Assembly: GCA_963804745.1 (NCBI GenBank) | Contig: CAWDRY010000012.1 | Span: 30,562 to 94,561 of the forward strand | From: an uncultured Gemmataceae bacterium | Lineage (GTDB): Bacteria; Planctomycetota; Planctomycetia; Gemmatales; Gemmataceae | Reading direction: 5' to 3' | DNA: 64,000 nucleotides | In this document: positions 1-26,280 of the stretch, piece by piece | Numbering within the stretch: the first letter of the stretch is position 1 | How the letters are laid out: the number at the start of each line of letters is the position of its first letter | Position numbers and translations under genes: made by a program | Notes under the pieces: model-generated | The model's input: only the letters and a program-made list of their open reading frames with translations | The model's database searches: none | What the model was told of the DNA's origin: nothing

Positions 1-1062
1 GAACTAGATTTTACGGATACTCTTGGGCGCGTACGTGATGTGTCGTTACTGGTCGGACCAAACACCTGCGGAAAGACAACTATCCTGGATGCTCTAGCCG
101 CCGCGATTGGTCCGACTACTGAGATCTACTCTCCCCGGCCGGGGTTTCTGCTAAGTCCCAGGGGCATCGTGCGAAAGGGGGCCTTGCACGCTAGAGTGAC
201 CTGCGATGTTTGGTTCACCGAAGAGGAGATCCATGCCACACGCGAAATTCTACGCCTCGCCGAAAAGAAGTGGTCCGTTCCAGATACACGCGAGATAAAG
301 GTCACCTGGCAGTACCCCGATCCCAGGAATGTAATTTCGAAATACCCGACCGGCTACACACAATTTGATCCCAAGTTCGCCTGGACACTGTTCAAAGGAA
401 GAATTGAGGCCGCGAGATTACTGTCAACAGCTCGAGTGAGCGGGGAATGGTTTAAGCGCGTTGGCGCGGTGTTCACATTTGACCAGCAGCGTACCGGCAT
501 GGGTAAGACGATCCCTCGGGATGTTTGGAATATCATCCACGGTGTTCCCAACGGTGAAGAACCGGATGGTAACGAGAGGCGTACATCAGACCCACGGACC
601 ATCTTGTTGTTTTTGGCCGTGCAATCGCTGCTTCCTCCTGCGGGCATGGGTCGGGCAGACGATTTCAAACTTATCCAAGAAAAATATGCGGAGATCTGTA
701 GCCCCCACCAGATCACCGGAGCTGCTCGAGATGACCTTGGCAACCTGGACATCCTCTTTAGCGATGGCCGTTACGAGTATGGCTATGACGGCCTGAGCAG
801 CGGTGAGCAAATGATCCTGTTGTTCCTGATCCGCATGGTAACCGAGCACATCCACCAGTCCATTGTGTTGATCGATGAAGTGGAGTTGCACGAGCATGCG
901 GTCTGGCAGCGGAAGCTCCTCCACCTGTTACCTAGAATGGGTGAAGGCAACCAGGTAATTGCGACCACGCACTCCGCTTATCTACGCGAGGTGGCCCTCC
1001 GTGGCGCCGTCAGAGACCTTGGTGATGTGAGCGAGGTTGCCGCCCCGGAAGGAGCCCAGTAG
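1..1062 (+). CDS. AAA_21 / ABC-type ATPase, AriA- or AbiLi-like; 5' end lies outside window
   Basis: Walker A GPNTCGKTT near N-terminus, ABC signature LSSGEQ, Walker B VLIDEVELHEH, H-loop ATTHS; frame open back to nt 1; stop TAG overlaps GTG start of next ORF (TAGTG). Confidence 0.6.
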   Translation, partial: ELDFTDTLGRVRDVSLLVGPNTCGKTTILDALAAAIGPTTEIYSPRPGFLLSPRGIVRKGALHARVTCDVWFTEEEIHATREILRLAEKKWSVPDTREIKVTWQYPDPRNVISKYPTGYTQFDPKFAWTLFKGRIEAARLLSTARVSGEWFKRVGAVFTFDQQRTGMGKTIPRDVWNIIHGVPNGEEPDGNERRTSDPRTILLFLAVQSLLPPAGMGRADDFKLIQEKYAEICSPHQITGAARDDLGNLDILFSDGRYEYGYDGLSSGEQMILLFLIRMVTEHIHQSIVLIDEVELHEHAVWQRKLLHLLPRMGEGNQVIATTHSAYLREVALRGAVRDLGDVSEVAAPEGAQ

Positions 1063-1969
1063 TGGCCGCCGTATACCTGTTTTGCGAAGGGGGCCCTGAC
1101 GGTTTGGACCTTCGCGCCCTCGACATCCTCGTTGCACAGCCTCCTCCAGTTTTCGTACAGATCGTGTCCGTGGGGGGCGAGAGGAACCTCAGGAGTGTTG
1201 CGTCCTGGCATGAGGAATGCTTGGGAGATGTGGCCCTAACCATAGAGGATCGGAACTATCGTACCCGCGTCGAGGCGGAGGCCACCTGGAAGACCACAGA
1301 CAACAGGCGGTTGATGTGGCTCAGGCATGAGGTTGAGAATTATCTGTTAGAACCGCGCATCGTCTGCTCGGCGTTCGAAATCCTTCCGGCGAACCGTTAC
1401 GGCCTCATGGGTACAACGGTTGCCTCGATCTCCCCAGGATGTCTTGGCATTACTGCAAGATCAGGCCCGACCCATGCTGGAGGATCACGCTGCTCGTGTC
1501 CTCCAGTGGGAGTTGCGCGAAATCAAGCGAGCGGCTGCCCAGACGGATCTTCGCCTACCAAAGCCGGATGCTCCCCAAGGCTCCTCCTACCCGCTCAGAA
1601 AACAATGGCTGGGCGCTCACCGAGGAAGTTGAGCGTCTGAAGCGGGATTGTCAAAAAGTCATCGACCTCCAGGCTCTTCATCCTGTTGCCGTTTTGGAAC
1701 GTTACGATGCCATCCTGGCACAGGTTCTCGATCCTGATTTCATCGCTTCGGGTGCGTTCTTGCGCAACATGGGCGGCCATCAACTTCTGACCGCCCTTCT
1801 TGTGCATCTCAGAAACCTGGGCCCCAGCCAGCTCGCGCTCGAGGAGATCGAAAATGAATTGCTTGGCGCGCTCCAACGGGAATATCAACCCGATCTGCTC
1901 TTTGATCCCGACGAGTTCCACATGCTGCGAGAGAGGGTGATGCGGTTTCATGGACGGCTGGGGCCGTAG
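1062..1969 (+). CDS. DUF4435 / OLD-type TOPRIM nuclease-like partner (AriB/AbiLii-like), reading frame broken twice (around 1410 and 1600)
   Basis: N-terminal VYLFCEGGPDGLDLRALD resembles the hydrophobic-x-x-EG-x-x-D TOPRIM start of DUF4435; three consecutive protein-like ORFs in frames 0,1,2 (1062..1640, 1420..1632, 1439..1969); translational coupling to upstream ATPase. Confidence 0.45.
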
Positions 1970-3025: not shown

Positions 3026-5041
3026 ATGCGTAAACTGTTGAAGTCTCGTGGCAAGCGCTCTGGGCGATTCTCCTTACCGGCACGGTTGCGGGCTTTTCTC
3101 CGCGTGGAGGAGCTGGAATCACGGACGCTTCCTTCAACTACGCAAATCTTTCCCATGGTGGCTGACCATGTTACTCCACTAGCCCGCACTGTCAACTTGG
3201 GGCCTTATAAGCCCGCGCAGATCACGAGTGCCTATGGCTTCAACCAGCAAACCAACACCGGTGCCGGTCAGACCATCGCCATCGTCGATGCCTTCGACGA
3301 TCCCACCATTGCTTCCGACCTGCAGACCTTCAACAATTACTTCACCCCGCCCCTGCCCACCTCGACATTCATCAAGGTGAATCAGAACGGCAACACCAGT
3401 TCCTTACCGCCGCCAGCGCCGGCCAATGACGACTGGACGCTTGAAGTTTCCCTCGACGTGGAATGGGCGCACGTTGTTGCTCCCGGTGCGAACATCGTGC
3501 TGGTGGAAGCCACCTCGGACAGCTGGAGCGATATGATGACGGCCGTTAACACCGCCGCCAATCCTGCCACTTACGCCACTCTTGGGCCGCAGAATAGTAG
3601 TATACCGGCTGCTTCGGTCGTGTCGATGAGCTGGGGCGGCAGTGAGTTTACCACCACAACCACCAGAACGAGAACTGGCACGATCACGTATCCGGGCGAG
3701 ACTACCTACGATAGTATCTTTGCGGCCTATCCCAATGTCACCTTCGTGGCCTCCTCCGGCGATGACGGCGCGCCGCCCATATGGCCCGCTGTCTCGCCCT
3801 ACGTCGTTGGCGTTGGCGGCACTAGGCTCACAGTGACGAACAATACCTACGGTGGTGAAACAGGCTGGAGCGACAGCGGCGGCGGCGTCAGCAAGTACGA
3901 ACCCATGCCGTCGTATCAGAGCGTGGTTGCGCCACAGTTTCAGACCGGCACCAAAACGGCCAACCTGAAGCGAACCAGCCCCGACGTGGCCTACAATGCC
4001 GACCCGAACTCAGGCGTATACGTTCTCGACAACTATGACGGCGGCTGGTGGGAGGTCGGCGGAACCAGCGCCGGCGCACCGCAGTGGGCCGGCTTGTTCG
4101 CTGATGTTAACCAACTGCGTGCATCGCCCATCGGCAGCGCCGCTCTCCCTGCTCTCTACAGCCTGACAGGCGTCACCAAAACAACCACCAACACCACCGA
4201 TTTCCACGACATCACGTCCGGCAACAATGGCTACGCGGCTAAGACGGGCTACGATCTTGTCACCGGCTTGGGCAGCCCGATTGCCAACGGCCCGACTGTA
4301 AACGGGATTGCCACCCCCGGGATTATCTCGGCCCTGGCGGCTTCCAACGCCTCACATCTCGCACTCGCCACAAGCACCCAGGCGCCGGCAACCACCACCA
4401 CGTCGTCACGGGACGGTGACCGGTGGTCGCACTCTGTGGACATCCGCACGCTCGTAAATGATCCCAGCTTGATGAACGCCCTTCTTTCCGGCACGAACAG
4501 CACAGGCCCGTGGCACATCGTTCCGGTCTACTTCGTGGCCCAGCCGGCCCCTGTTACCAACCTCAGCAACGGCCCGGCTGTCACCACTATTCAAAGTCCT
4601 CTCCCAACCAGCAGAACAGCCGTCCCGGTTCCTCTCAGCCTGTTGTCCAGCAGTATTGAGAGCAAAACGGACCTTCCCGACGACGCGGATGCCATCGACC
4701 CGATGCAAGATCAGAGCATGTTGCTCGTGCCGGACGCTGTGGCTCCTGCGCCGCTGCCAGCGAGCCTCCGGGTTGAACCCGGAGGAGGCTCGCCGGCCCC
4801 TGTTTTGTCGCAAGACCAGGCCGTGGATGCGTGTTTCGCACATTCACTCTGGTCGGACGGACAGATTCCTTCCAGCCTGTCTCGGTCCACGGACGCAGCA
4901 CCGGCATCGACCGTTGAGCAAACCAGCACCCCGGCCAGTCGCTCAGCGGCTTCGGCGGCGTTGTTCGTCATGCTCGGTGCCGTGTGGACTTCGTCGGCCA
5001 GGGATAACAAATCTCGCGTCCGCCGCTGGAACTGGCGGTGA
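3026..5041 (+). CDS. secreted S53 (sedolisin/kumamolisin-like) serine-carboxyl peptidase with long Pro/Ser/Thr/Ala-rich C-terminal region and hydrophobic+basic C-terminal tail
   Basis: AIVDAFDDPT, SSGDDGA, GGTSAGAPQWAG (S53 catalytic Ser motif); N-terminus RLRAFLRVEELESRTLPS Planctomycete-type leader; C-term LFVMLGAVWTSSARDNKSRVRRWNWR. Confidence 0.8.
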   Translation: MRKLLKSRGKRSGRFSLPARLRAFLRVEELESRTLPSTTQIFPMVADHVTPLARTVNLGPYKPAQITSAYGFNQQTNTGAGQTIAIVDAFDDPTIASDLQTFNNYFTPPLPTSTFIKVNQNGNTSSLPPPAPANDDWTLEVSLDVEWAHVVAPGANIVLVEATSDSWSDMMTAVNTAANPATYATLGPQNSSIPAASVVSMSWGGSEFTTTTTRTRTGTITYPGETTYDSIFAAYPNVTFVASSGDDGAPPIWPAVSPYVVGVGGTRLTVTNNTYGGETGWSDSGGGVSKYEPMPSYQSVVAPQFQTGTKTANLKRTSPDVAYNADPNSGVYVLDNYDGGWWEVGGTSAGAPQWAGLFADVNQLRASPIGSAALPALYSLTGVTKTTTNTTDFHDITSGNNGYAAKTGYDLVTGLGSPIANGPTVNGIATPGIISALAASNASHLALATSTQAPATTTTSSRDGDRWSHSVDIRTLVNDPSLMNALLSGTNSTGPWHIVPVYFVAQPAPVTNLSNGPAVTTIQSPLPTSRTAVPVPLSLLSSSIESKTDLPDDADAIDPMQDQSMLLVPDAVAPAPLPASLRVEPGGGSPAPVLSQDQAVDACFAHSLWSDGQIPSSLSRSTDAAPASTVEQTSTPASRSAASAALFVMLGAVWTSSARDNKSRVRRWNWR

Positions 5042-5071
5042 TGGTGAGCGGCCGCGCGCGCTGAATCTTAA

Positions 5072-5177
5072 GGCGAGTGGCAAGTGATACCTCCCTCGCT
5101 GACGCTTCGGGCCAATGTCACACTGGCCCGAAGCGTCAGCGAGGAATGGTAAATTGTTATCCGCCGCTCGTCTAATG
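5072..5177. repeat. ~105-bp palindromic MITE/REP-like element, copy A (ends X-left, Y-right; more diverged)
   Basis: ggcgagtggcaagtgatacctccctcgctgacgcttcgggcca...tggcccgaagcgtcagcgaggaatggtaaattgttatccgccgctcg. Confidence 0.8.
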
Positions 5178-5323
5178 TTAACTTCTCGCCCTTCTTCCCT
5201 CTCCATCTTTCCCGCTCTTTCCCCATCCTCCCGAAGTGTCCAGGCGAACCAAAACTGATACCTCTCTCAAACACCCTGATTTCTTTGCCGAAAGAACTTC
5301 CACTTTTCTTGCATCTGTGTTAT

Positions 5324-5425
5324 GGCGTGCGGCAAGTGATACCATCCCTCGCTCACGCTTCGGGCTAGTCTCACACTGGCCCGAAGCGTGAGCGAGGGAT
5401 GGTAAATCATCTTCTACCGCTCGCC
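5324..5425. repeat. palindromic MITE/REP-like element, copy B (X-left, Y-right)
   Basis: near-perfect long hairpin ggcgtgcggcaagtgataccatccctcgctcacgcttcgggc...gcccgaagcgtgagcgagggatggtaaatcatcttctaccgctcgcc. Confidence 0.85.
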
Positions 5426-5474
5426 TATCCGTGTAATCTGTGGTCAAAGGTCCAGGTTAAAGTTTTGTTTTCTC

Positions 5475-6569
5475 ATGAAATCTCACGATCACCCGCCGAG
5501 TGTTGTCTTGCGGTCCAGGCTATGCGTATTGTTGCTCGCCATCGCCCTCGTCGGGCTGACGGGTTGTCAGACGCTGCCTTCCGTTCGCCTTTGGAACCCC
5601 GTGGAAGTGCCTGCCGTTCGCGCTTGCGAGGTGCAACAGTTGCGCGACATCGTCTATTGCGACGGAGCGAAGGCAGATTCCTCTCGCCACCGTCTCGATC
5701 TGTATCTGCCCAGGGGAAGCAGGATTTCCCGGTCGTCGTGCTCGTTCACGGCGGCGCCTGGGTGATGGGCGACAATCGCTGTTGCGGGCTTTACACCAGC
5801 GTCGGGGAATATCTGGCCGGCCGGGGCATTGGCGTTGTCGTGCCCAACTACCGGTTGTCGCCGGGAGTGAAGCATCCCGAACATGTCAAGGACGTGGCCC
5901 GCGCGCTGGCCTGGACCCGGACTTTCATCGGCACCTTCGGCGGCTCGCCGGACAAGATCTTCCTCGCCGGCCATTCCGCCGGCGGGCATCTCGTCTCCCT
6001 GCTGGCGACGGATGATACCTACCTGAAGGCCGTGGGGCTGCGGACCCGCGACATCAAAGGCGTGATCTCAATCTGCGGCGTCTACCGCATTCCGGCGGGG
6101 AAGATGGAAGTCACCCTGGGCGGCGACAGCGAACGGGCCTTCCGGCTGAGCGAGATTTGTCCCATTCGCGGCACAGGCGATGCAGGCGGACCCAGGCCGG
6201 CCGTCTTGCCGGGCATTCCCGTGAGCCTCAACGTATTCGGCCCGGTTTTTGGCGAGGACCCGAAGGCGCGAGAGGCTGCCTCGCCCTTGAATTACGTTCG
6301 GCCCGGCCTGCCGCCGTTCCTTATTGTTTCGGCGGAGAATGACCTGCCCACTGTTGCAGGGATGGCGGAGGAGTTCCAGAAGGCCCTCGCGAAACAAGGG
6401 TGCGGGGCTTCAGCTCATCCGGATCGCGAATCGGAACCACAACAGCGTGATGTTCCGGGCGATTCAGGATGATGATCCGCTGGCCAGGGCGATGGTGGAG
6501 TTTGTCAGGCGGCGGAGCGGGGAAGAGCCGGGCGGAAGGAAACCGGGAGATGCGCGGGGCGGGCAGTGA
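5475..6569 (+). CDS. alpha/beta-hydrolase fold esterase/lipase (Abhydrolase_3-like) lipoprotein; two apparent frameshifts (~5715 in GGGG run, ~6405)
   Basis: signal peptide + lipobox LTGC; DLYLP...VVVLVHGGAWVMGD (HGG oxyanion motif), GHSAGGHL (GxSxG nucleophile elbow); C-terminus continues in ORF 6324..6569. Confidence 0.7.
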
Positions 6570-6593
6570 CGTCGCCACAGGACGATACAGTAA

Positions 6594-6700
6594 GGCGAGC
6601 GGCAGAAGATAATTTAGCATCCCTCGCTCACGCTTCTGGCCAGTGTGACACTGGCCCGAAGCGTGAGCGAGGGATGGTATCACTTGCCGCTCGCCTAATG
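6594..6700. repeat. palindromic MITE/REP-like element, copy C (Y-left, X-right; inverted relative to A/B), immediately 3' of the giant gene
   Basis: ggcgagcggcagaagataatttagcatccctcgctcacgcttctggccagtgtgacactggcccgaagcgtgagcgagggatggtatcacttgccgctcgcctaatg. Confidence 0.85.
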
Positions 6701-6705
6701 CCGCC

Positions 6706-9700
6706 TCATCTGTCCAGCCAAACATCATCGCTCGGCTGCCAGGCGCCGGCGCCAACCCTGAACAACTCCGATGAAACTTCAAGCCCGCTTGTGAGGATAG
6801 ACAGGGAGCCGGCATCGGCATCATCACCCATCTGCAACCACACCGAATCGCCCCGTTGATCCGCGCTCGGCGACTGCTCATCGCCGGGAACAGGCACCCC
6901 AACTCCCGCCGCTGGCCCGAAGAAGATCGAGGATAGAGGATGGAGAATGGAAGATAGAGGACGGCAAAGCGCTGGTTCCATCCTCAATCCTCCATTCTCC
7001 ATCCTCTCGCGCTGTGCAGGCTTGGCTGTCTCATCTCCCACGACCGCCACCGCAAGACCTGCGTTTGCCTGCACACCGGCTGCGACGGGAGACAGCACGT
7101 TAATGCACCCATCCAGCGCATCCCCCGCCGCATTGCTCGGCCGCGGTTCCAGATCGAACAGGAAATCATTCCCCTGCGCATCCGTCCCCCCCAACGCCGT
7201 CCATGCGCTCCCGGCATTCTGCATCAAGTTGATGATCGCCGCCCCCGCCGGCGCATCCGGCTTGACATGGAACGTAATCAGCGCCAGGCTGCCACCGGAC
7301 AACTCACCACTCACCACTCCACCACTCACCACTCCACCACTCACCACTCCACCACTCACCAGTCCGCGATACCCACTGATGTAAATAATCCCCGCCGCCC
7401 GGTCGACGTTGACCGTGAAGTTATCGAATGTCTGCGTCAGACTCCCCCGCACCACATCCCCCACCGAAACCACATCCACCCGGCTCGTGTCATAAGCAAT
7501 GACCAGATTCACCGAATCCAACCCAGCGAGCGGCGGGGTTGATCCCCGCCGTCCAGCCCCCGGGTCAAGATTCACCGGCACCACTACCTCCGCTTGCGGT
7601 TTCGCGCTGACCTCTGACCTCTGACCTCTGACCTCTGACCTCTGACCTCTGACCTCTGCCTGTCCGATACTCACCACCGGGTCCGGCCCCGTAACCCCCG
7701 GCGTCACCGCCGGCAGCACGGGAACGTTCGCCTGCGTAATCCCCACCGCTTCCCGTGCAATCTGCAAAGCATCCAACCCCGTCAGCACATTATCCCCGCT
7801 CACATCCCCGACGATGAGCGGATCAGCCAGCACCCACTGCCGAAACCCCGGATCAAGCCCGACCACCACACGCGAAATGCGCTGAGCATCAAGGCCGGTG
7901 TAAATTCCATCGCCGGTAACGTCGCCGAGGAAGCCCGAAACGTGAACGGCGGCGTCGTCCAGGGCGGTGATGCTGCCGCCGTTGATCTGAATGTTTTGCA
8001 AATCGAGGATTTCCTTCGCCCCATAACCCGCCGTGCTCGGCACCAACGCCGTCAATGTGGCAAAGATTGCCGATTCATTGTGACCAAGCACGATACCCGT
8101 TGGCGAGGAGTAAGTCACCACCGCCAGTCCCGGCGTAGCTACTCCACTCACTGTCAGCAGATTGGGATCATAAGCCAGGTTCAACGTTACCGAAGTAACG
8201 GTCACCGTCGCACTGCCCTCGTTCAATAACCTTACCGGAATTCCATCCGTCCCCTCCGTCCCATTCACCGCCTGCCCCGGCCCGCGCAAAGTCCGGCAAA
8301 CTAACAACCACCGCGTTGGGCGGGTTAATAACCACGAACGTGGTGACAAAATTATCCCCCGGCGTGCCGTCGCCGTTGCCGTCGAGCAAGTTGCCGTCAA
8401 CATCCTGGAACCCGTTGCTGGCACTGCGGAGTGTGACGGTATAGGTGCCGTCGGGCAGCACGCCAAACAGAGTTCCGGCAGCAGCACTACCGAGGACACC
8501 GCTCTGTCCGGTCTGGATGAAGGTGATGCGCTGCTGCCCTGCAACTGTATCGACGACCAGCGAGCCGCGAATTGGGCCGGCGCCGGTGCCGATGAGAGTG
8601 ACGTCTTCTGACCCCAGAGTGCCGGTCGAGTTGTCGTACAGGTTGAGCGAACTGGTGTCGAGTAGCCGGTCGAACACGGCCTCGAAGCCGGTGGCCGTGG
8701 GCGCAAAGGCAGTCACCCGTAACGTGGCTGCTTGGATTGACTGGATTAGCGGCGCGGACGTACTGCCCGGGAAGCCCGTGTCCCCGCCGTAGACCGCCGT
8801 GATCGAATGCCCGCCCACCGCCAGCCCGTTCGTGGTCCACGAAGCGTTGCCGCTACTGTCGAGCAGCCCTGTCCCCAGGCTCGTACTTCCGTCCATGAAC
8901 GTGACCGTGCCCGTAGGTGTACCGTCGCTGCTGCTGACCGTAGCCGTGAAGCCCACCGTTTGGCCCACCATCGCCGGATTGAGTGAAGACACCACGGTGG
9001 TCAAGGTTGATGGCAGGACCGTTATAAGCCCGTCGAGAGCATCACCGGCTGCATCGCTGGGCGCCGGTTGCAAGGTAAAATTGCCCAGGGCGGCGCCTGT
9101 CGCATCGCTGCCGTGCAGCACCGTCGTGGTCGTCTGCACGTGTTGCTGCAAGTTGATAATGGCTGCTCCCGGCAGCGCAGCCGCCTTGATGTGGAAATGA
9201 ATGATTGCCACACTGCCGCTGCCGAAACCGAAAATCGCGCCGGCCGACCGATAGGTACTCAGCCGAACCGTGCCCGCCGTATTGTCGTAATTGGCCACAA
9301 AGCCGTCAAACGTGCTGGTCAAGGTGCCCGGCTGAATGTCCCCCGCCGACAGGATTTCAAGCCGGCTGGTGTCGTAGGAGATGGCCAGATCGGCCTGCTC
9401 CAGGCTATCGGATCGATCCAGGTTTACCGGCACTGCGATGCTGCTACCGATTCCGCCGCTGAAGGTCGTGGGGATACTGATGGTAGCCACGGGCAATACG
9501 GTTTGCGTCAGGGCAACCGAGGTGCTGCCGGCGAAGTTCGTGTCGCCGCCGTAGACCGCGCTGATCGTATGCCGGCCGGGGGTCAGTGTCGTCGTGCTGA
9601 ACGTAGCCATGCTTCCCCTCTCCCCCTGGGAGAGGGGTAGGGGTGAGGGCGGCCGTGCCCAGCGGAATGCCGCCATCCTGGAACGTCAGCACCCCGCTCG

Positions 9701-12700
9701 GCCACTGACCACTGACCACCGACCACTGACTACCGACCACGGCAGTGAAAGTGATTGCCTGGCCCGCCGCCGCTGGATTGAGCGACGAAGTCGCGACAGT
9801 GCTCGTGCTCGCCTGATCGACGGTCTCGTACACGGCAGCCGAAGTGCTCCCCAAGGAATTGACATCGCCGCCATAAACACTCCTCAACACGTGCTGGCCG
9901 ACACTAAGACTGCTGACCGCAAAGATGGCTGTCCCGCTAGTGTCCAGCGTCCCATAACACAATACCGTGCTGCCATCCAGGAACGTCACGCTGCCTGTTG
10001 GAATGATGCCTACACTCCCGTTCACGGTCGTTGTGAAACTCGCGCTTTGGCCGAAGATAGAAGTGTTGACAGATGGGAAGGCCGTGGTGATGGTCGTTTG
10101 CTGGATCGCTTGAATCAAGGCCGCCGAGGTGTTGCCGAGGAAGTTGCCGTCCCCGCCGTACACCACCGTGATGCTGTAACTATCAACAGCCAGGACAGTA
10201 CTCAGATGGAAGGTGGCGATGCCAGCGTTCAGCGTCACCGTGCTCCTGCCTGGCAGCGGGTCCCCATCCCCCAGGAAGGTGACCGTGCCTGTCGGCGTGC
10301 CAGCACCCGGAGAGGCGGCACTTATGGTGGCGGTAAACGTGATGGATCGACCAAAGCCGGATGGGTTGACCGGCGATGTCAGAGTCACGGTAGTGCTGGC
10401 TGGGTTGACTGTTTGAGGTAGTGGATTCGACGTGCTCCAGCCCAGGTTCGTATCGCCGCCGTAGATCGCCGTTAGGGTGTGGGCCCCTGCCGACAGTGTT
10501 GCGGTGCTGAAGCTGGCCGTGTCGCCGCCAACGGCAACGGTGCCGATGGAAGTGCTGCCGTCCATGAACGTCATTGTCCCCGTTGGCGTGCCCGCCCCGG
10601 GTGTACTGGCAGCAATCGTGGCCGTGAATGTCACGCTCTGACCGTAAAGGGATGGATTTACCGGCGAAGTCACGGCTGTGGTCGTGGTGGCCTTGGCTTG
10701 AATGACCGTTTGCACCGTGCTGCCGCTGCTGCTGTTGAAGTTTGCATCCCCGCCGTAAGTCGCTGTGATGCTGTGTACACCCACGGCCAATGAGGACGTC
10801 GCATAGGTCGCCATCCCACCACTCAGGGTAACTACACCGCCGGATAGCACAGCCCGTTCTCCATGAATGTCACTGTGCCGGTCGGCGTGCCGGTGCCCGG
10901 ACTGACGGCGCTCACCGTTGCCGTAAAGGTCACGCTCTGGCCGAGGACCGACTGATTGGCCGGCGCACTGACCGTGGTGCTCGTGCCGGCCTGGTTGACC
11001 GTCTGCAAGAAGTCGCCCAACGTGCTGTCGTTGAAGTATCTGTCGCCGCCGTAGATAGCAGTGATGGTGTGCGTCGCCACCGTCAGGCTGCTGGATGTGA
11101 ACGTCGCCGTGCCGCCTTGCCCCTCTCCCCCTGGGAGAGGGGTTGGGGTGAGGGTACCCGTACCGATGGAGCTGCCGCCCTCCTCGAACGTGACCGTACC
11201 TGTCGGTGCCCCCCCGCCGGGACTGACGGGACTGACCGTGGCCGTGAACGTCACCGGCTGGCCGAATACCGATGGGTTGACTGACGAGGTCACTGTCGTG
11301 GTTGTGGCTGTCTGTGCGGGCACTTGTGTCTGGTAGGCGCCGATGTCGGGGTTGCGGATTGGCCGGGGCTGGCCGCGCTGGTCGGTCGTGAGGCCGTTTT
11401 GCGCCGGCACCGATGGCGGGACTGCCCGGCAGCAAGGCCATCGTCGCTGTCGGCCCTCCATTGTTTGCCAGAGGACCAAGCAAGGGATCAATCGCGTTCG
11501 GGTCGGAGCCGGTCACCCCAACTTGATTGTGGTTGCCATCACCGTTCCTGATGCCAGTCAGGCCGGTGCCGTCGCCGATCAGGTTATAGGCGCGTAGCGC
11601 TGGTGACGCTGCCGGCAATGTCCGGATCACTGATGGTCACTGTGTTGCCGGCCACAATGGTGCTGAGCAGCGTTACCGTATCCGAATTGCCGATGCCGCC
11701 GCCATACGCAGCAGAGTTGCCGGCCAGGGTAGAGTTGCTCACCGTCACCGTGCCAGCGGCATTGAAAATGCCGCCGCCGTCCCATACGGCGGAGTTGTCG
11801 GCGAGGGTACAGTTGCTCACCGCCCCCGTGCCATTGTTGTAGATGCCGCCGCCGTAGCCGTGGGCGGCGTTACCGTAGAGGGTGCTGTTGCTCACCATCA
11901 CCGTGCCACCGAGATCGTTGCAGATGCCGCCGCCGCTCCCTTGGGCGGAGTTGCCGGACAGAGTGCAGGTGCTCACCGTCACCGGGCCATTCCTGTTGTA
12001 AATGCCGCCGCCGCTCCCTTGGGCGGAGTTGCCGGACAGAGTGCAGGTGCTCACCGTCAGCGTGCTCCAATTCCAGTAGTTGCCTACATCGATGCCGCCG
12101 CCGCTACTTTGGGCGGAGTTGCCGGAGAGAATACAGTTGCTCACCGTCACCGGGCCACCGTAGCTGAAGATGCCGCCGCCGCCGCCGCCGCCGCCCCAAT
12201 AATTAGGATAAGCGCTGTTGCCGGAGAGGGTGCAGTTGCTCACCGTCAGCGGGCCATAATTGCAGATGCCGCCGCCATTGCCGCCGTTGGATGCGGAGTT
12301 GCCGGAGAGGATGCAGTTGCTCACCGTCAGCGTGTTCCAGTTGGCCATGTCGATGCCGCCGCCATCGCCGTTGAATGCGGAGTTGCCGGACAGGGTGCAG
12401 GTGCTCACCGTCACCGGGCCACTGTTGTTGTAGATGCCGCCGCCGCTGTATGCGGAGTTGCCGGACAGGGTGCAGGTGCTCACCGTCAGCGGGCTATTGT
12501 TGTAGATGCCGCCGCCGTTGCCGTTGGAGGCGGAGTTGCCGGAGAACATGCAGTTGCTCACCGTCACCGGGCCACCGTTGTTGTAGATGCCGCCGCCGTT
12601 GTAGTATGCGGAGTTGCTGGACAGGGTGGTGTTGCTCACCGTCACCGTGCCATAATTGCAGATGCCGCCGCCGTAGGATGCAGAGTTGCCCGACAGGGTG

Positions 12701-15700
12701 GTGTTGCTCACCCACAGCATGCCACTATTGTAGATGCCGCCGCCGTAGGATGCGGAGTTGCCCGACAGGGTGGTGTTGCTCACCCACAGCATACCACTAT
12801 TGTAGATGCCGCCGCCGTAGGATGCGGAGTTGTCGGACAGGCTGCAATTGCTCACCGTCAGCGTGCCATTGTTGAGGATGCCGCCGCCTGCACCGGGGGT
12901 GGATCCATTGCTGATGGTCAGGTTTTCCAGGGTGGCGGTGGTGTTCGCTGCCACCGTGAAGAGCAAGGAGTTCCACCCGCGGCCGCCGCCCTGGATGGTC
13001 AAAGCGGCTGTCGGGCCAGCAATGATGATCGACGCGCCGAGGGTGGCGTTGTCGAGGTTCAGTGCGCCTGCGGGCGCGATCGTCTGCGGCGTGGCGAAAA
13101 CCACGGGGTCGAAGGAAATGGTGAAGAGGCCGCCGTTGCCGTCGTTGTCCGCCTGGGCCACCGCATAGGACAGGCTGCCTGGTCCCGAGCTATTGATGTT
13201 CGTAACGATGTAGTAACCGGGGACCGCCGGGGCGATAGTGAACGACTGATCGACGGGGGCGGCGGCGCTGTAGTCGATGCTGCCCGCCTGCACCGCCACG
13301 ACGGTGACCACCGTCCCTGCCGGCGTGGCGCCGAGGATGGTGATTGTGTTGCCGGAGATGCTGGCATACTGCCCGCCCGCCACAATGCGGAAGCTGACCG
13401 CCAGGCCCGAGCTGGCGCTGGCGCTCACCGTAAACGGTGCGTTGCCATAGATCTGGTTGGCCAGCGGCCCGAAGCTGATCGTCTGCCTGACCGCGGTCTG
13501 ATAGGCGCCGATGTCCGGGCTGCCGGCCGGCCGGGGCTGGCCGCGCTGGTCGGTGGTGATGCCGTTAACGATCTCGCCGGCGCCGATTGCAGGGCTGCCC
13601 GGCAGCAAGGCCATCGTAGCCGTCGGCCCGCTGTTATTTTGCAAAGGGCCAAGCAGGGGATCGATCGGGTTGGGGTCTGAGCCGGTCACCCCGACTTGAT
13701 TGTGGTTGCCATCGCCGTTGCTGATGCCGGACAGGCCGGTGCCGTCGCCGATAAGGTTATAGGCACTGCTTCCCGTGATGATGCCGTAAATGTCCGGCTC
13801 ACTGACGGTGTTGCCCGCCACGATGGTACTGAACAATGTCACCGTCCCGGCGGCAGTGCCGATGCCGCCGCCGTTACCTTGGGCGGTGTTGCCGGACAGC
13901 GTGGAGCTGCTTACCGTCACCGTGCCGTCTTGGTTCCAAATGCCGCCGCCGTTACCCTGGACGGAGTTGCCGGCGACGGTGCAGTTGCTCACCGCCAGCG
14001 TGCCGTCGTTCCAAAGGCCGCCGCCGTTACCCTGGGCCGAGTTGCCGGCGACGGTGCAATTGCTCACCGCCAGCGTGCCGTCGTTCCAGATGCCGCCGCC
14101 GCTGCTGCTCGTGTACCCATTACTGATGGTCAGGTTTTCCAGGGTCGCGGTTGTGTTCGCGGCCACCGTGAAGACCGAGAAGTTCGACCCGCTGCCGCCG
14201 CCCAGGATGGTCAGAGCAGACTGCCGGGCCGGCAATGAGCACCGAAACGCCGGGCGTGCTGTTGTCGAGGTTCAGCGTGCCTGCCAACGTTATCGTCTGC
14301 GCCGTGGCGAAAACCGTTGCATCGAAGTTGATGGTGAAGAGTTCCCCCCTGGTGTCGTTGTCCGCCTGTTCGACCGCGTAAGGCAGGCTGCCGAGCACCG
14401 TGCTGTCGTTGCTGGTATTGGTGACGGTGTAGGCCGGTGTCTGATAGGCGCCGATGTCGGGATGGCTGCTTGACCGAGCATGGCCGCACTGGTCGGTCGT
14501 GAGGCCGTTTTGCGCCGGCGCCGATGGCGGGACTGCCCGGCAGCAAGGCCATCGTCGCCGTCGGCCCACCATTGTTTGCCAGAGGACCAAGCAGGGGATC
14601 TATCGGGTTCGGGTCTGAGCCGGTCACCCCAACTTGATTGTGGTTGCCATCGCCGTTGCTGATGCCGGTCAGGCCGGTGCCGTCGCCGATCAGGTTATAG
14701 GCGCGAGCGCTGGTGACGCTGCCGGCAATGTCCGGATCACTGATGGTCACTGTGTTGCCGGCCACAATGGTGCTGAGCAGCGTTACCGTATCCGAATTGC
14801 CGATGCCGCCGCCATACGCAGCAGAGTTGCCGGCCAGGGTAGAGTTGCTCACCGTCACCGTGCCAGCGGCATTGAAAATGCCGCCGCCGTCCCATACGGC
14901 GGAGTTGTCGGCAAGGGTACAGTTGCTCACCGCCCCCGTGCCATTGTTGTAGATGCCGCCGCCGTAGCCGTGGGCGGCGTTACCGTAGAGGGTGCTGTTG
15001 CTCACCATCACCGTGCCACCGAGATCGTTGCAGATGCCGCCGCCGCTCCCTTGGGCGGAGTTGCCGGACAGAGTGCAGGTGCTCACCGTCACCGGGCCAT
15101 TCCTGTTGTAAATGCCGCCGCCGCTCCCTTGGGCGGAGTTGCCGGACAGAGTGCAGGTGCTCACCGTCAGCGTGCTCCAATTCCAGTAGTTGCCTACATC
15201 AATGCCGCCGCCGCTACTTTGGGCGGAGTTGCCGGAGAGAATACAGTTGCTCACCGTCACCGGGCCACCGTAGCTGAAGATGCCGCCGCCGCCGCCGCCG
15301 CCGCCCCAATAATTAGGATAGGCGCTGTTGCCGGAGAGGGTGCAGTTGCTCACCGTCAGCGGGCCATAATTGCAGATGCCGCCGCCATTGCCGCCGTTGG
15401 ATGCGGAGTTGCCGGAGAGGATGCAGTTGCTCACCGTCAGCGTGTTCCAGTTGGCCATGTCGATGCCGCCGCCATCGCCGTTGAATGCGGAGTTGCCGGA
15501 CAGGGTGCAGGTGCTCACCGTCAGCGGGCCACTGTTGTTGTAGATGCCGCCGCCGCTGTATGCGGAGTTGCCGGACAGGGTGCAGGTGCTCACCGTCAGC
15601 GGGCTATTGTTGTAGATGCCGCCGCCGTTGCCGTTGGAGGCGGAGTTGCCGGAGAACATGCAGTTGCTCACCGTCACCGGGCCACCGTTGTTGTAGATGC

Positions 15701-18700
15701 CGCCGCCGTTGTAGTATGCGGAGTTGCTGGACAGGGTGGTGTTGCTCACCGTCACCGTGCCATAATTGCAGATGCCGCCGCCGTAGGATGCAGAGTTGCC
15801 CGACAGGGTGGTGTTGCTCACCCACAGCATGCCACTATTGTAGATGCCGCCGCCGTAGGATGCGGAGTTGCCCGACAGGGTGGTGTTGCTCACCCACAGC
15901 ATACCACTATTGTAGATGCCGCCGCCGTAGGATGCGGAGTTGTCGGACAGGCTGCAATTGCTCACCGTCAGCGTGCCATTGTTGAGGATGCCGCCGCCTG
16001 CACCGGGGGTGGATCCATTGCTGATGGTCAGGTTTTCCAGGGTGGCGGTGGTGTTCGCTGCCACCATGAAGACCGAGGAGTTCCACCCGTGGCCGCCGCC
16101 CTGGATGGTCAAAGCGGCTGTCGGGCCAGCAATGATGATCGACGCGCCGAGGGTGGAGTTGTTGAGGTTCAGTACGCCTGCGGGCGCGATTGTCTGCGGC
16201 GTGGCGAAAATCACGGGGTCGAAGGAAATGGTGAAGAGGCCGCCGTTGCCGTCGTTGTCCGCCTGGGCCACCGCATAGGACAGGCTGCCTGGTCCCGAGC
16301 TATTGATGTTCGTAACGATGTAGTAACCGGGGACCGCCGGGGCGATAGTGAACGACTGATCGACGGGGGCGGCGGCGCTGTAGTCGATGCTGCCCGCCTG
16401 CACCGCCACGACGGTGACCACCGTCCCTGCCGGCGTGGCGCCGAGGATGGTGATTGTGTTGCCGGAGATGCTGGCATACTGCCCGCCCACCACAATGCTG
16501 AAGCTGACCGGCAGGCCCGAGCTGGCGCTGGCGCTCACCGTAAACGGTGCATTGCCGTAGGTCTGGTTGGCCAGCGGCCCGAAGCTGATCGTCTGGTTGG
16601 TCTCGCTCTGGTAGGCGCCGATGTCGGGGTTGCCGGCCGGCCGGGGCTGGCCGCGCTGGTCGGTGGTGTTGCCGGCAACGACCTTGCCGGCACCGATCGC
16701 AGGGCTGCCCGGCAGCAAGGCCATCGTAGCCGTCGGCCCGCTGTTATTTTGCAAAGGGCCAAGCAGGGGATCGATCGGGTTGGGGTCTGAGCCGGTCACC
16801 CCGACTTGATTGTGGTTGCCATCGCCGTTGCTGATGCCGGACAGGCCGGTGCCGTCGCCGATAAGGTTATAGGCACTGCTGCCCGTGATGATGCCGTAAA
16901 TGTCCGGCTCACTGACGGTGTTGCCCGCCACGATGGTACTGAACAATGTCACCGTCCCGGCGGCAGTGCCGATGCCGCCGCCGTTACCTTGGGCGGTGTT
17001 GCCGGACAGCGTGGAGCTGCTTACCGTCACCGTGCCGTCTTGGTTCCAAATGCCGCCGCCGTTACCCTGGACGGAGTTGCCGGCGACGGTGCAGTTGCTC
17101 ACCGCCAGCGTGCCGTCGTTCCAAAGGCCGCCGCCGTTACCCTGGGCCGAGTTGCCGGCGACGGTGCAATTGCTCACCGCCAGCGTGCCGTCGTTCCAGA
17201 TGCCGCCGCCGTTGCTGCTCGTATGCCCGTTGCTGATGGTCAGGTTTTCCAGGGTGGCGGTTGTGTTCATGGCCACCGTGAAGACCGAGAAGTTCGACCC
17301 GCTACCGCCGCCCAGGATGGTCAGAGCAACTGCCGGGCCGGCAATGAGGACCGAAGCGCCGGGCGTGCTGTTGTCGAGGTTTAGCGTGCCTGCCAGCGCG
17401 ATCGTCTGCGCTGTGGCGAAAACCGTTGCATCGAAGTTGATGGTGAAGAGTTCCCCCCTGGTGTCGTTGTCCGCCTGTTCGACCGCGTAAGGCAGGCTGC
17501 CGAGCACCGTGCTGTCGTTGCTGGTATTGGTGACGGTGTAGGCCGGTGTCTGATAGGCGCCGATGTCGGGATGGCTGCTTGACCGAGCATGGCCGCACTG
17601 GTCGGTCGTGAGGCCGTTTTGCGCCGGCGCCGATGGCGGGACTGCCCGGCAGCAAGGCCATCGTCGCCGTCGGCCCACCATTGTTTGCCAGAGGACCAAG
17701 CAGGGGATCGATCGGGTTCGGGTCTGAGCCGGTCACCCCAACTTGATTGTGGTTGCCATCGCCGTTGCTGATGCCGGCCAGGCCGGTGCTGTCGCCGATC
17801 AGGTTATAGGCGCTATTGCTGGTGACGCTGCCGGCAATGTCCGGATCACTGATGGTCACTGTGTTGCCGGCCACAATGGTGCTGAGCAGCGTTACCGTAT
17901 CCGAATTGCCGATGCCGCCGCCATACGCAGCAGAGTTGCCGGCCAGGGTAGAGTTGCTCACCGTCACCGTGCCAGCGGCATTGAAAATGCCGCCGCCGTC
18001 CCATACGGCGGAGTTGTCGGCGAGGGTACAGTTGCTCACCGCCCCCGTGCCATTGTTGTAGATGCCGCCGCCGTAGCCGTGGGCGGCGTTACCGTAGAGG
18101 GTGCTGTTGCTCACCATCACCGTGCCACCGAGATCGTTGCAGATGCCGCCGCCGCTCCCTTGGGCGGAGTTGCCGGACAGAGTGCAGGTGCTCACCGTCA
18201 CCGGGCCATTCCTGTTGTAAATGCCGCCGCCGCTCCCTTGGGCGGAGTTGCCGGACAGAGTGCAGGTGCTCACCGTCAGCGTGCTCCAATTCCAGTAGTT
18301 GCCTACATCGATGCCGCCGCCGCTACTTTGGGCGGAGTTGCCGGAGAGAATACAGTTGCTCACCGTCACCGGGCCACCGTAGCTGAAGATGCCGCCGCCG
18401 CCGCCGCCGCCCCAATAATTAGGATAAGCGCTGTTGCCGGAGAGGGTGCAGTTGCTCACCGTCAGCGGGCCATAATTGCAGATGCCGCCGCCATTGCCGC
18501 CGTTGGATGCGGAGTTGCCGGAGAGGATGCAGTTGCTCACCGTCAGCGTGTTCCAGTTGGCCATGTCGATGCCGCCGCCATCGCCGTTGAATGCGGAGTT
18601 GCCGGACAGGGTGCAGGTGCTCACCGTCACCGGGCCACTGTTGTTGTAGATGCCGCCGCCGCTGTATGCGGAGTTGCCGGACAGGGTGCAGGTGCTCACC

Positions 18701-21630
18701 GTCAGCGGGCTATTGTTGTAGATGCCGCCGCCGTTGCCGTTGGAGGCGGAGTTGCCGGAGAACATGCAGTTGCTCACCGTCACCGGGCCACCGTTGTTGT
18801 AGATGCCGCCGCCGTTGTAGTATGCGGAGTTGCTGGACAGGGTGGTGTTGCTCACCGTCACCGTGCCATAATTGCAGATGCCGCCGCCGTAGGATGCAGA
18901 GTTGCCCGACAGGGTGGTGTTGCTCACCCACAGCATGCCACTATTGTAGATGCCGCCGCCGTAGGATGCGGAGTTGCCCGACAGGGTGGTGTTGCTCACC
19001 CACAGCATACCACTATTGTAGATGCCGCCGCCGTAGGATGCGGAGTTGTCGGACAGGCTGCAATTGCTCACCGTCAGCGTGCCATTGTTGAGGATGCCGC
19101 CGCCTGCACCGGGGGTGGATCCATTGCTGATGGTCAGGTTTTCCAGGGTGGCGGTGGTGTTCGCTGCCACCATGAAGACCGAGGAGTTCCACCCGTGGCC
19201 GCCGCCCTGGATGGTCAAAGCGGCTGTCGGGCCAGCAATGATGATCGACGCGCCGAGGGTGGAGTTGTTGAGGTTCAGTACGCCTGCGGGCGCGATTGTC
19301 TGCGGCGTGGCGAAAATCACGGGGTCGAAGAAAATGGTGAACGGGCCGCTGCTGGTGTTGTTGTCTGCCTGGGCCAGCGCATAGGGCAGGCTGCCGATCA
19401 CCGTGTTGTCGTTGCTGGTATTGGTGACAGTGTAGAACTGGGCCTGGCTGACCATTTGCACAAAGCTGCCGCTGCTGCTTACACAATTGCCGTCGCCGCC
19501 GTAGACTGCCGTTATCGTGTGGTAGCCGGCCGTCAAGCTGCTGGTCATGAATGTGGCCGTGCCGTTGCTGTCCAGAGTGACCATGCCGTTGCTCAGTGGG
19601 AAGCCCCCGTCCTCGAACATGACCGTGCCCGTCGGCGTGCCGGCGCCCGGCGAGGTGACACTGACCGTGGCGGTAAAGCTCACACTCTGCCCGAACACCG
19701 AGGGACTGGCAGATGAAGTCACCGTTGTCGTCGTGCTCGCCGGGTTCACGGTCTGGGTGAGAGTGTCTGAGGTGCTGGCCGTGAAGTTGCCGTCGCCGCC
19801 GTAAGTCGCCGTGATCGTATGAACGCCAACGGTAAACATAGACGTGGCGAAGGTGGCCGCTACCCCGCCGCTGACTGCTCCCGTGCCCACGGAGGTGCCG
19901 CCGTCCTGGAACGTCACTATCCCCGTCGGCCACTGGCCACTGACCACTGACCACTGACCACTGCATGTGGCCGTGAAAGTCACGCCCTGGCCGAACACCA
20001 ACGGGTTGGTCGAAGAATTCACCGTGGTGGTGGTGCTCGCCTGGTTGACGGTCTGGACGGTGCTGCCGCTGCTGACGCAGTAGGTGCTGTCGCCGCCGTA
20101 GCTGGCCGTGACGGTGTGGGTGCCGGCACTCAGAGTCGAGATGGGGAAGGAAGCAGTGGCAATGGCGCCGCTGCCGCTCAATGTGCTTTGCCCAAGCGAC
20201 GTGCTGCCGTCGCTGAAGGTCACCGTGCCGCTAGGCGTCTCGGACTGGTTCCCGGTGACGGTGGCGCTGAATGTGACAACATCGCCTAAGATTGACGTAC
20301 TGGAAGACGATGTCACCGTGGTGGTAGCGGTGCCGCCCGTGACGGTCTGTAGGAAGGTGCCCGAGGCGGGGCTGGCGCTGAAGTTGGTGTCGCCGCCGTA
20401 GCTGGCCGTGATGGTATGCGTGCCAATCGACAGCGCCGTGGTCGAGAACGTCGCCGTGGTGCCGCTGATCGAACTCGTGCCGATGGAGCTGCCGCCGTCG
20501 CTGAAGGTCACCGTGCCGGTTGCGCCGGTGGGCGAACTGTGGACCGTGGCCATGAACGTCACCGTCGAGCCGTAGACTGGGGAACTGGGCGTCGCCGCCG
20601 TCACCGTGGTCGTGGTGCTCGCCTGGTTGACGGTCTGGAGGAAGGTGCCGGTGGTGCTGCTGGCGGCGTAGTTGGTCCCGCCGCCGTAGGTCGCGGTGAG
20701 CGAGTGGGTGCCGGCGGCCAGGCTGCTGGTCGTAAATGTGGCGATGCCGCGGCCGGTGCCGCTGCCGTCGTCGGTCACATTGGCGAATCCCAGGGTGGTG
20801 GCGCCGTCCATAAACATCACGCCGCCGTCGATCGTGTTGCTGGCGCCGCCTTGCACGGTTGCGGTGATGGTCACAGGCTCGCCGAAGGCCGTCGGTCCCG
20901 ACGAAGTCACGGTGGTGGTCGATGCGATCGTTCCGGGAGTCAGCACGATCAGGGTGCCGTCCACCACGTCACCGGCGGTATCGTTGGGAGGGGGATCCAG
21001 CGTGTACACATCCCCTGAGCTAATGCCATATGCCTTCGTGGGAAGGCTTTGGTTGAGGGACAGCGGGACGCTCGCTCGCAAGTTGATGATACTGTGCCCT
21101 GCAGACTGCAGGTTGGTAAAGGCAATGTCCAGCAGATCGATGGTTTGATCCGAATTGTCCAAACCGGTGAAAGAAAATGCGTCGACGGCGATTGTGCCTA
21201 CTAGACCCGGCAACAGAGTATTGTTGGGGACGATGTTCCCGGCGTAAGTGAACCCGGGGGACAGCGGTTCCTTGAAAGCTACTGCCTGTTCGTTCGAGAC
21301 AGTTGTCGCCACAAACAGCTGCGTGGGATCGTAACTCATGGCGATGTCAAACTCGCCCAGGGTAGCCGCGCCGATGGCGGCCAAGCCCACGCTGACAGGC
21401 ACTGTTTGGAACTGAAAAGCATGGAACGGTCGGACGGCGACAAACATTTCTCCCGTTGACGACGGCGTGAGGCGCTCCTCGAACGGCTCGACGGACAGCC
21501 AGCAGCGCCGGCGCTCGGTCTTGCGGCGGCCGCGATGCTTGCGCCAGCGCCTCCAGGACCAAGTGTTCAATTCGACCATTTGCACCAGGTTTTGCCACCA
21601 ACGAAAAAATGTCATAATGCGGCTCCTCAA
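6706..21630 (-). CDS. giant (~4,900 aa if contiguous) secreted adhesin-like protein fragmented into 6 overlapping ORFs by frameshifts: N-terminal Planctomycete leader, 3 cohesin-like modules, dockerin-like repeats, many Big_3-like Ig domains, PbH1 parallel beta-helix repeat arrays, choice-of-anchor-Q-like domains
   Basis: ORFs 17302..21630, 14211..17699, 11584..14235, 9444..11630, 8168..9676, 6706..8706 all minus strand, overlapping, with domain continuity; N-term ...RRRCWLSVEPFEERLTPS; SGNSAxxGGGIYN repeats; YNLIGDGTGLxGISNGDGNHNQVGVTGSDPNPIDPLLGPLxNNxGPTATMALLPGSPAIGAG; GDVSGDNVLTGLDALQIAREAVG dockerin-like; AISYDTSRLEILSAGDIQPG cohesin-like. Confidence 0.6.
7302..7370. repeat. in-frame SSR (CACCACTCACCACTC)x4 within giant gene, encodes (GVVSG)n
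   Basis: read directly; same GGTGAGT/ACTCACC heptamer family as intergenic palindromes. Confidence 0.8.
7606..7652. repeat. in-frame SSR (GACCTCT)x6.5 within giant gene
   Basis: read directly: ctgacctctgacctctgacctctgacctctgacctctgcc. Confidence 0.8.
11335..19440. repeat. near-identical tandem duplication, unit ~3106-3110 bp, ~2.6 copies (boundaries ~11335/14445/17554/19440) inside the giant gene
   Basis: spurious +strand ORFs recur at 11603/14713/17822, 12375/15485/18591 etc. with identical translations; offsets 3110, 3109, 3106. Confidence 0.85.
12171..12194. repeat. (GCC)8 trinucleotide SSR encoding poly-Gly in beta-helix module; copies at 15282-15305 (x8) and 18391-18411 (x7)
   Basis: read directly; copy 3 is one unit shorter. 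Confidence 0.8.
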
Positions 21631-26045: not shown

Positions 26046-26280
26046 TGCAAGTACCCAACTTCGCTGACCTTACGGCCACTGCACATCATCCAGCCACGCC
26101 GGAACTTTCATCTCACCCTCAAAGCCTGGGGACATGCAATGAGAAATACATTGTGCCGCACTCTCCTGCCTAACATCCTCCTCACAACCAAGTTGGACAA
26201 ATAGATTCTTCACCTTTATCCTTCAGGTTGGGCGAGCCGAGCAGCGTAAGCTGCCGGGTGATGAACCCCATCATCTACTC

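Follow-up and report, generated by a model that had tools for sequence, protein, structure and literature searches.

Bases 1-1969 of the DNA analysed here, a 64,000-nucleotide stretch (hereafter the window) of contig CAWDRY010000012.1 (positions 30,562 to 94,561, forward strand) from an uncultured Gemmataceae bacterium, carry two genes that read in the same direction. An ABC-type (AAA_21/AAA_15) ATPase gene (1-1062, + strand), whose 5' end lies beyond the window edge, is followed directly by a partner gene (1062-1969, + strand) that passes through three reading frames and whose first segment holds a Toprim core. A sequence-only reading had seen in this pair a PARIS- or AbiL-like anti-phage module with a doubly broken effector gene. 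In our assessment the two genes probably, if not with great confidence, form a PARIS-like cassette of an ATPase and a Toprim nuclease with the fold of AriB, which would work by sequestration and release if the analogy with PARIS holds, and the frame breaks of the nuclease gene can most likely be put down to errors of the assembly. Related loci are labelled L001 and so on, and database proteins P0001 and so on.

Results

The ATPase is read in frame 1, which is open from base 1 through the stop codon TAG at 1060-1062 (354 codons) and has no frame break. Its alignment with the 366-residue homologue from locus L001 covers residues 18-358 of the latter in a single piece with 63% identity; since it begins at residue 18, about 17 N-terminal codons must lie outside the window, in agreement with the truncation suspected from the sequence. 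On the + strand the motif reading gives Walker A (GPNTCGKT, 55-78), a Q-loop region (478-498), the ABC signature (LSSGEQ, 793-810), Walker B (IVLIDEVE, 862-885) and the H-loop (ATTHS, 961-975). The last three also emerge from an alignment of 27 ATPases from related loci, in which the S-G-E of the signature is invariant or nearly so. Despite the absent N-terminus, the cut-offs of both Pfam families are passed, that of AAA_21 (27 bits) with 58 bits and E 2.1e-15, and that of AAA_15 (32.1 bits) with 48.4 bits and E 1.4e-12. ABC_tran stays below threshold (19.4 bits against a cut-off of 25) and covers the P-loop only, and the NCBIfam transporter models reach 11-17 bits against cut-offs above 200. 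An ATP-binding subunit of an ABC transporter was therefore rejected, and the canonical AAA_21 type assigned by the sequence-only reading holds.

Among the PADLOC models, PtuA and AriA match the ATPase about equally (both near 1e-16), and AbiLi, which covers the full-length ATPase, follows with 1e-10 for the window copy and 6e-18 for a homologue. A family profile built from the 27 ATPases and searched against the PDB retrieved the ATPases of retrons Ec83/Ec78 and the PtuA of Septu (2e-19 to 1e-13), as well as the N-terminus of Thermus OLD (E 9e-11). It is clear from these sequence matches that the ATPase is a member of the OLD/PtuA/AriA branch within the ABC ATPases.

The junction between the two genes (1047-1064, + strand) consists of a Shine-Dalgarno-like GGAAGGAG at 1047-1054, in which AGGAG (1050-1054) lies 7 nt upstream of the partner's start codon, and of the ATPase stop TAG (1060-1062) and the partner start GTG (1062-1064), which share one base (taGtg, 1060-1064). 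The translational coupling proposed from this TAGTG is thus well founded. The homologous pair of L001, an intact cassette at 3801-5815, overlaps by ATGA.

From GTG 1062 the partner open reading frame (ORF) begins MAAVYLFCEGGPDGLD; its own frame stops at 1640, and two other frames continue the gene. Segment 1 (1062-1378, + strand) is the Toprim core, with CEG at 1083-1091, DRN at 1248-1256 and HEVENY at 1326-1343. Segment 2 (1380-1612, + strand, in the frame of 1420) is a helical middle region that keeps the conserved L131, A135 and W182, and segment 3 (1614-1969, + strand, in the frame of 1439) is a C-terminal helical domain that keeps the conserved G238, L241, L266, F285 and L288 and ends with the stop TAG at 1967-1969. 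Used as a query, the conceptually repaired partner found the intact 305-residue metagenome proteins P0002 and P0003 (42-43% identity over 97%), together with a 192-residue fragment, P0001, called on the source contig. When P0002 and P0003 were in turn compared with the window by tblastn, the match came in three colinear pieces (joint E 6e-58; frame +3, 1068-1391, 49% identity with P0002; frame +1, 1420-1611, 45%; frame +2, 1616-1942, 39%), confirming that the partner spans three frames.

The positions of the two breaks can be narrowed to short base runs. The closer homologue P0012 reads TFDSFRRTV where the window, with one A fewer at GCGTTCGAAATCC, reads AFESFRRTV. Break 1 consequently lies upstream of the interval 1400-1450 to which the sequence-only reading had assigned it, namely at the AAA run of GAAATCC (1377-1379, + strand), which has one A extra relative to homologues. 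Break 2 lies at the GGG run of CTGGGCGCTC (CTGGGCG, 1611-1613, + strand), where either one G is extra or a GC unit has been lost from GCGCGC. Both breaks shift the frame by +1. Deletion of one A from 1377-1379 and one G from 1611-1613 yields a single ORF of 301 codons that has no internal stop and ends at TAG 1967-1969. Of 36 positions that at least 80% of 52 homologues conserve, the repaired ORF has the consensus residue at 35, the remaining position being a conservative I-to-V replacement, and the 36 positions are spread across all three segments.

No Pfam family matched the repaired partner at E<=1, and none matched P0002 or P0003 even at E<=10. Among 67 full-length family members, Pfam gave sub-threshold matches only, to DUF4435 (5 members, best E 0.017), DUF3226 (4) and OLD-like_TOPRIM (2), all of which are Toprim families. 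The sequence-only reading had taken the partner for a DUF4435 protein and had named the lack of a DUF4435 or OLD-TOPRIM profile match as the finding that would speak against it; formally, and as far as Pfam goes, this is what was found, and the assignment falls. Matches were obtained with the fused AriAB model of PADLOC over the partner portion (9e-5 for the window copy, 2e-7 for P0002 and 9e-10 for P0003) and with its AriB model (E 1e-3 for P0003). The searches suggested for the corrected sequence hence came out positive for AAA_21/AAA_15 and for the fused AriAB model, and negative for DUF4435. Neither an AbiLii model (PADLOC, E<=10) nor HNH matched the partner.

The relation to AriB is seen more clearly with the family than with the single sequence. 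In the family alignment the E of CEG and the D-R are invariant, and C, G, D(+7), W, R-H-E-x-E-N-Y-L and P nearly so. The top match of the family profile among PDB sequences is AriB (8ux9_A, E 0.009), with EG placed on E26-G27, DR[DN] on D-R-E (D-R-A in 8v46) and RHEIENY on GHSLENY. The Toprim-like start noticed earlier in the N-terminal motif LFCEGGPDGLD is accordingly upheld, its CEG aligning with the catalytic E26-G of AriB, and the window copy retains E9, D63, R64, E90, E92 and N93. By this alignment, the catalytic Toprim glutamate and the acidic cluster of AriB are conserved. In AriB itself, E26A is an active-site mutant that lacks toxicity and served for the structural work on PARIS (PMC11464382, PMC12409363). 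An AlphaFold2 model of the homologue P0002, based on an alignment of 67 sequences, was obtained with high confidence (predicted local distance difference test 97.6, predicted template modelling score 0.91), and a Foldseek search of the PDB with this model returned AriB (8ux9_A and 8v46_D) at E ~2e-5, the next match being at E 0.23. With AriB 206 residues were aligned, reaching into the helical domain, versus 113-155 with the Toprim domains of OLD and GajA. The viral structure library BFVD gave no significant match to the model. On the strength of the predicted structure, the partner family has an AriB-like fold that comprises both the Toprim core and the helical domain, and is a remote homologue of AriB, closer to it than to any other Toprim protein and beyond the Toprim core.

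When 1.84 billion cluster representatives were searched exhaustively with the family profile, a threshold of E<=1e-3 yielded 213 representatives of the partner family, most of them 285-315 residues long, and one of E<=1e-30 yielded 58. Among the matches listed in a second database, the family members were unnamed or called 'hypothetical protein', and none had a precomputed Pfam domain. One further protein, P0026 (436 residues, ENA, on a contig of 162,500 bp), has AAA_15/AAA_21 followed by partner-family sequence (residues 113-315), and is a natural fusion or, alternatively, the result of read-through due to a frameshift.

When one genome per species was scanned, 52 loci were obtained, the closest match having 46% identity. 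In all 33 loci with a clear partner homologue and upstream DNA (33/33), an ATPase homologue stands directly upstream and ends 0-45 nt before the partner, which establishes a strict adjacency of the two genes across phyla. The hosts, represented by metagenome-assembled genomes (MAGs), include Anaerolineae/Chloroflexota, Gemmataceae, Pirellulaceae, other Planctomycetota, Polyangia and Nannocystis (Myxococcota), Acidobacteriota, Armatimonadota and Heliomicrobium; Gemmata algarum is likewise among them. The distant loci L038-L054 have the same gene arrangement, with ATPases that are 27-31% identical. A conserved third gene was searched for across the related loci and none was found. Only one neighbour recurs, an SNF2-family helicase, which is present in 5 of about 35 loci (L001, L003, L021, L027 and L035). 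In L001 (296-6730) and L003 (275-6387) the cassette lies between an SNF2 gene (RNA_pol_A_CTD and DUF3670) and a SWIM zinc-finger gene, and looks like an insertion into an SNF2-SWIM pair. In the window, the next gene after the cassette encodes a family-2 glycosyltransferase. Taken together, the loci give the picture of an autonomous cassette of two genes that came to lie at diverse chromosomal positions, a context that would suit a defence or toxin-like module and that by itself lends it little weight.

Frame breaks are also found in unrelated genes of the window. They were sought by eye and with an iteratively trained Viterbi codon-model segmentation, and some were verified with Pfam; a frame plot of the GC content at third codon positions (GC3) was uninformative, the genome having 60% GC and the partner gene a modest GC3. 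A gene for an FGE-sulfatase (SUMF1-like) protein runs over three frames on the + strand (58486-58722, 58723-59054 and 59055-59309), which match positions 6-51, 84-143 and 164-254 of PF03781, with junctions at CAAAG (~58722) and CTAGGGGAG (~59054). The dCTP deaminase gene (59828-60396, + strand) is split at ~60160, so that positions 4-100 of PF22769 are read in one frame and positions 104-151 in the following one. A lipoprotein esterase gene (BD-FAE/Abhydrolase_3, 5475-6563, + strand) uses frames 0, 2 and 0, its middle piece matching BD-FAE from profile position 11; it reads ...LDLYLPRG in the first frame, KQDFPVVVLVHGGAW... in the second and then ...RIANRNHNSVMF back in the first, with breaks at CAGGGGAAG (~5715) and near 6400-6410. 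In a cyclophilin-type peptidyl-prolyl isomerase gene (38361-39139, - strand) the domain starts at profile position 21, right after a switch at ~38828. By eye and codon model, at least two probable switches were placed in a P-loop ATPase/GNAT gene (26236-27539, + strand), and one each in the genes for an Ig-repeat surface protein (~9587, - strand) and a right-handed beta-helix protein (~61795, - strand). Switches at 11.6-21.6 kb that recur with a period of 3109 nt are probably gene boundaries and were left out of the count. Apart from the two in the partner, the window contains some ten further breaks, roughly one per 4-5 kb, and every located break lies in or adjoins a run of at least three identical bases.

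Discussion

PARIS consists of AriA, an ABC ATPase, and AriB, a DUF4435/Toprim nuclease (Rousset et al. 2022, PMC9122126; Burman et al. 2024, PMC11464382). Its published detection rule combines AAA_15 (>=32 bits) or AAA_21 (>=27 bits) with an adjacent DUF4435, PF14491 (>=27 bits) (PMC9122126). The ATPase of the window scores well above the first part of this rule and the repaired partner fails the second, and the cassette is therefore not PARIS by the published rule. It nonetheless shares with PARIS the order of ATPase and then nuclease, the tight coupling, the AAA_21/AAA_15 assignment, a glutamate equivalent to AriB E26 and the match to the AriAB model. Of the PARIS/AbiL architecture originally proposed, the PARIS-like gene order, the ATPase and the CEG motif have consequently stood, while an AbiLii match and agreement with the DUF4435 rule have not been found.

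Several findings weigh against a PARIS-like identity. In the PDB search, AriA was matched by the ATPase profile at E 1e-9 over the C-terminal 80 residues only (263-341), and the ATPase scores higher with PtuA than with AriA. At full length it would have about 366 residues versus 464 in AriA, and, being shorter by some 100 residues, it must lack part of the helical region inserted between Walker A and the signature. In AriA-type ATPases, insertion sequences IS1 and IS2 build the hexamer (a trimer of dimers) that sequesters AriB. Orthology with AriA is not demonstrable, and an AriA-type hexameric scaffold is unproven. The partner, for its part, is only ~19% identical to AriB and has no Pfam DUF4435 or OLD-like_TOPRIM assignment, which leaves it outside the PARIS detection rule. 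The genomic context does little to help: ten neighbours that we sampled are mostly housekeeping genes (MnmG, MoxR, DUF58, nitrilase, PTA, CstA, GT2), with a restriction gene, a type I R subunit, in one of the ten, and no copy turned up when plasmid and phage collections were searched with the partner by tblastn. Unlike PARIS, the cassette was not found on phages, satellites or plasmids, and it is hosted by environmental bacteria of the Planctomycetota, Chloroflexota, Myxococcota and similar groups.

Other known systems resemble the cassette in part. PtuA, of Septu and retrons Ec78-Ec83, gives the best sequence matches of the ATPase in PDB, PADLOC and NCBIfam. However, PtuA has 450-550 residues and pairs with the HNH nuclease PtuB, whereas the partner here is a Toprim, AriB-like protein without HNH; as the NCBIfam PtuA model moreover reaches 46 bits against a cut-off of 500, Septu was rejected. 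With OLD and with GajA of Gabija the cassette shares the partnership of an ATPase and a Toprim domain, but in those the two are fused, while the cassette has separate proteins and the C-terminal helical domain of its partner is AriB-like. A fused OLD/GajA was rejected on account of the two ORFs found here and in 33 related loci. As to AbiL of Lactococcus, AbiLi scores are weaker than those of PtuA and AriA, and membership in AbiL cannot be shown from the sequence, since an AbiLii match is lacking. On present evidence, the cassette is a divergent, unannotated branch of PARIS-like systems, with a probably PARIS-like working and an effector remotely homologous to AriB. One may go further and speculate that it represents a distinct clade, in which a short PtuA-like ATPase is combined with an AriB-fold nuclease that is invisible to DUF4435, which occurs in Planctomycetota, Chloroflexota, Myxococcota, Acidobacteriota and Armatimonadota, whose scaffold, trigger and RNA or DNA target may differ from those of E. 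coli PARIS, and whose effector has been disrupted repeatedly in Gemmataceae. To this extended proposal we give somewhat less than an even chance.

In PARIS, a hexamer of AriA holds AriB monomers, and ATP-dependent binding of the phage protein Ocr frees AriB, which then dimerises and cuts host tRNA-Lys by two-metal catalysis, leading to a stop of translation; neither gene and neither active site can be dispensed with (PMC9122126, PMC11464382, PMC12409363). By analogy, the ATPase of the cassette would keep the nuclease inactive, would detect a phage-derived trigger in an ATP-dependent manner, and would then free the nuclease. The latter, in turn, would use the glutamate of CEG, the DR[ND] and the acidic cluster of ExEN for a metal-dependent cut of host nucleic acid, and the cleavage, of tRNA in the case of PARIS, would halt growth. 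Sequestration, sensing and release form the best-supported model for the cassette, given how its genes are ordered and coupled, that the ATPase motifs are intact, and that the partner has the AriB fold and acidic residues aligned with those of AriB. A complex of the two proteins and its stoichiometry, the trigger, tRNA or DNA as the substrate, and the defence phenotype are all conjectured from the likeness to PARIS.

Two other functions have to be weighed against this model. The pair could be a split system of the OLD/Gabija type, in which the nuclease, under control of the ATPase, nicks or degrades phage or host DNA and not tRNA. The match of the ATPase profile to the N-terminus of Thermus OLD fits this, and so does a detail of the partner: AriB K60 and K64 are reported to hold the tRNA anticodon loop (PMC12409363), and the corresponding region is poorly aligned and variable in the partner family. 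Against it stands the far better agreement of the partner with AriB than with the Toprim domains of OLD and GajA, which includes the helical domain, and we regard this alternative as unlikely. Alternatively, the cassette could be a non-immune accessory module for the repair or remodelling of nucleic acids, acting with SNF2/SWIM helicase genes. An SNF2 helicase gene adjoins it in the five loci named above, and in L001 and L003 an SNF2 gene and a SWIM zinc-finger gene enclose it. Yet in L001 it looks inserted between the two genes and not part of their operon, some 30 loci have no SNF2 neighbour, the other flanking genes (MnmG, MoxR, PTA, CstA, GT2, type I R) are unrelated to one another, and in the window a glycosyltransferase follows. 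Such an accessory role seems to us highly improbable, and a PARIS-like defence cassette remains the reading we prefer.

The frame breaks in the nuclease gene call for an explanation of their own. The sequence-only reading had singled out the doubly broken effector as a special feature, a view that does not survive the finding that Pfam-verified frame switches also split unrelated genes of the window; of the two causes it had offered, indels of the assembly are now better supported and inactivation less so. A working genome would not carry all these breaks, and residual single-base indel errors in base runs are the most economical explanation. We therefore consider it likely that the breaks in the partner are an assembly artefact, in which case the organism probably carries an intact nuclease gene. 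Long-contig MAG loci (L027 and L034) likewise show split genes.

The rival view is that the nuclease gene is a true pseudogene, in which two slippage mutations abolished function in vivo, with the ATPase retained, as might be expected if a potentially toxic effector decays. Two breaks within the 0.9 kb of the partner exceed the mean rate of the window, about one break per 4 kb, and the adjoining 1-kb ATPase gene has none. Moreover, in the isolate Gemmata algarum JC673 (L032 10216-10280, NZ_JAXBLV010000177.1) a 5-bp duplication (AATTA AATTA) in the partner puts a TAA into the ENY motif and CEG is changed to CEC, the ATPase being intact, so that this copy looks like a genuine pseudogene. In L036 (Gemmata sp. 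SMAG_U3706, 8757-9915), on a contig whose name (k141_...) points to a short-read assembly, the ATPase lies in three frames. These two copies indicate that real loss of the cassette does occur among related Gemmataceae, and they speak, as does the density of breaks, against an artefact. On the other side, breaks of the same class split the dCTP deaminase, FGE-sulfatase, esterase and cyclophilin genes within 64 kb, which is unexpected in a viable genome, and the repaired ORF is free of stops and has kept nearly all conserved residues, so that inactivation, if real, would be very recent. On balance, we believe decay in vivo to be a minority possibility for the window copy. Programmed ribosomal frameshifting, by which a full-length nuclease would be made from the three frames, could account for two breaks that are both +1 and in the same direction. 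It was rejected, and is effectively refuted, as more than 100 homologues of 285-315 residues are single uninterrupted ORFs, the break sites are not conserved, and unrelated genes of the window are broken in a similar way.

A further locus, L027 (Gemmataceae MAG MFD01248.bin.2.72, 8761-10878), has both cassette genes over two frames; the splits in L036 and L027 could be additional cases of decay in Gemmataceae or else errors of assembly.

If functional, the cassette extends the defence theme of an ATPase plus a Toprim domain, known from PARIS, OLD and Gabija, to poorly studied environmental phyla, and it implies that detection rules relying on DUF4435 overlook a whole branch, that of the 213 cluster representatives. 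Its shorter ATPase offers a natural comparison by which to ask which parts of AriA serve sensing and which serve sequestration of the nuclease. For the specialist this is a useful, yet unsurprising, extension. The double breakage of the effector gene is mainly a warning about assembly quality: frame breaks in this assembly should not be taken as biology, and pseudogene calls on the contig need read-level confirmation.

Other features of the window

At 11595-21591 (- strand), large paralogous proteins are encoded by three tandem units of ~3.1 kb. Since their period, 3109 nt, is not divisible by 3, each copy lies in a frame other than that of the copy before it; the third unit, in addition, switches frame at ~14218. 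An IS1-family transposase (45588-46488, + strand) is encoded in two frames, with a helix-turn-helix piece and a DDE_Tnp_IS1 piece. A programmed frameshift is known in IS1, and the two-frame layout could reflect either this or an assembly error. Finally, a palindromic repeat of ~60-100 nt, with the core ...CCCTCGCTCACGCTTCGGGCCAGTGT / ACACTGGCCCGAAGCGTGAGCGAGGG..., is present in copies at 5092-5174, 5340-5427 and 6593-6702, which flank the esterase gene and look like an intergenic element of the repetitive extragenic palindromic (REP) or miniature inverted-repeat transposable element (MITE) type.

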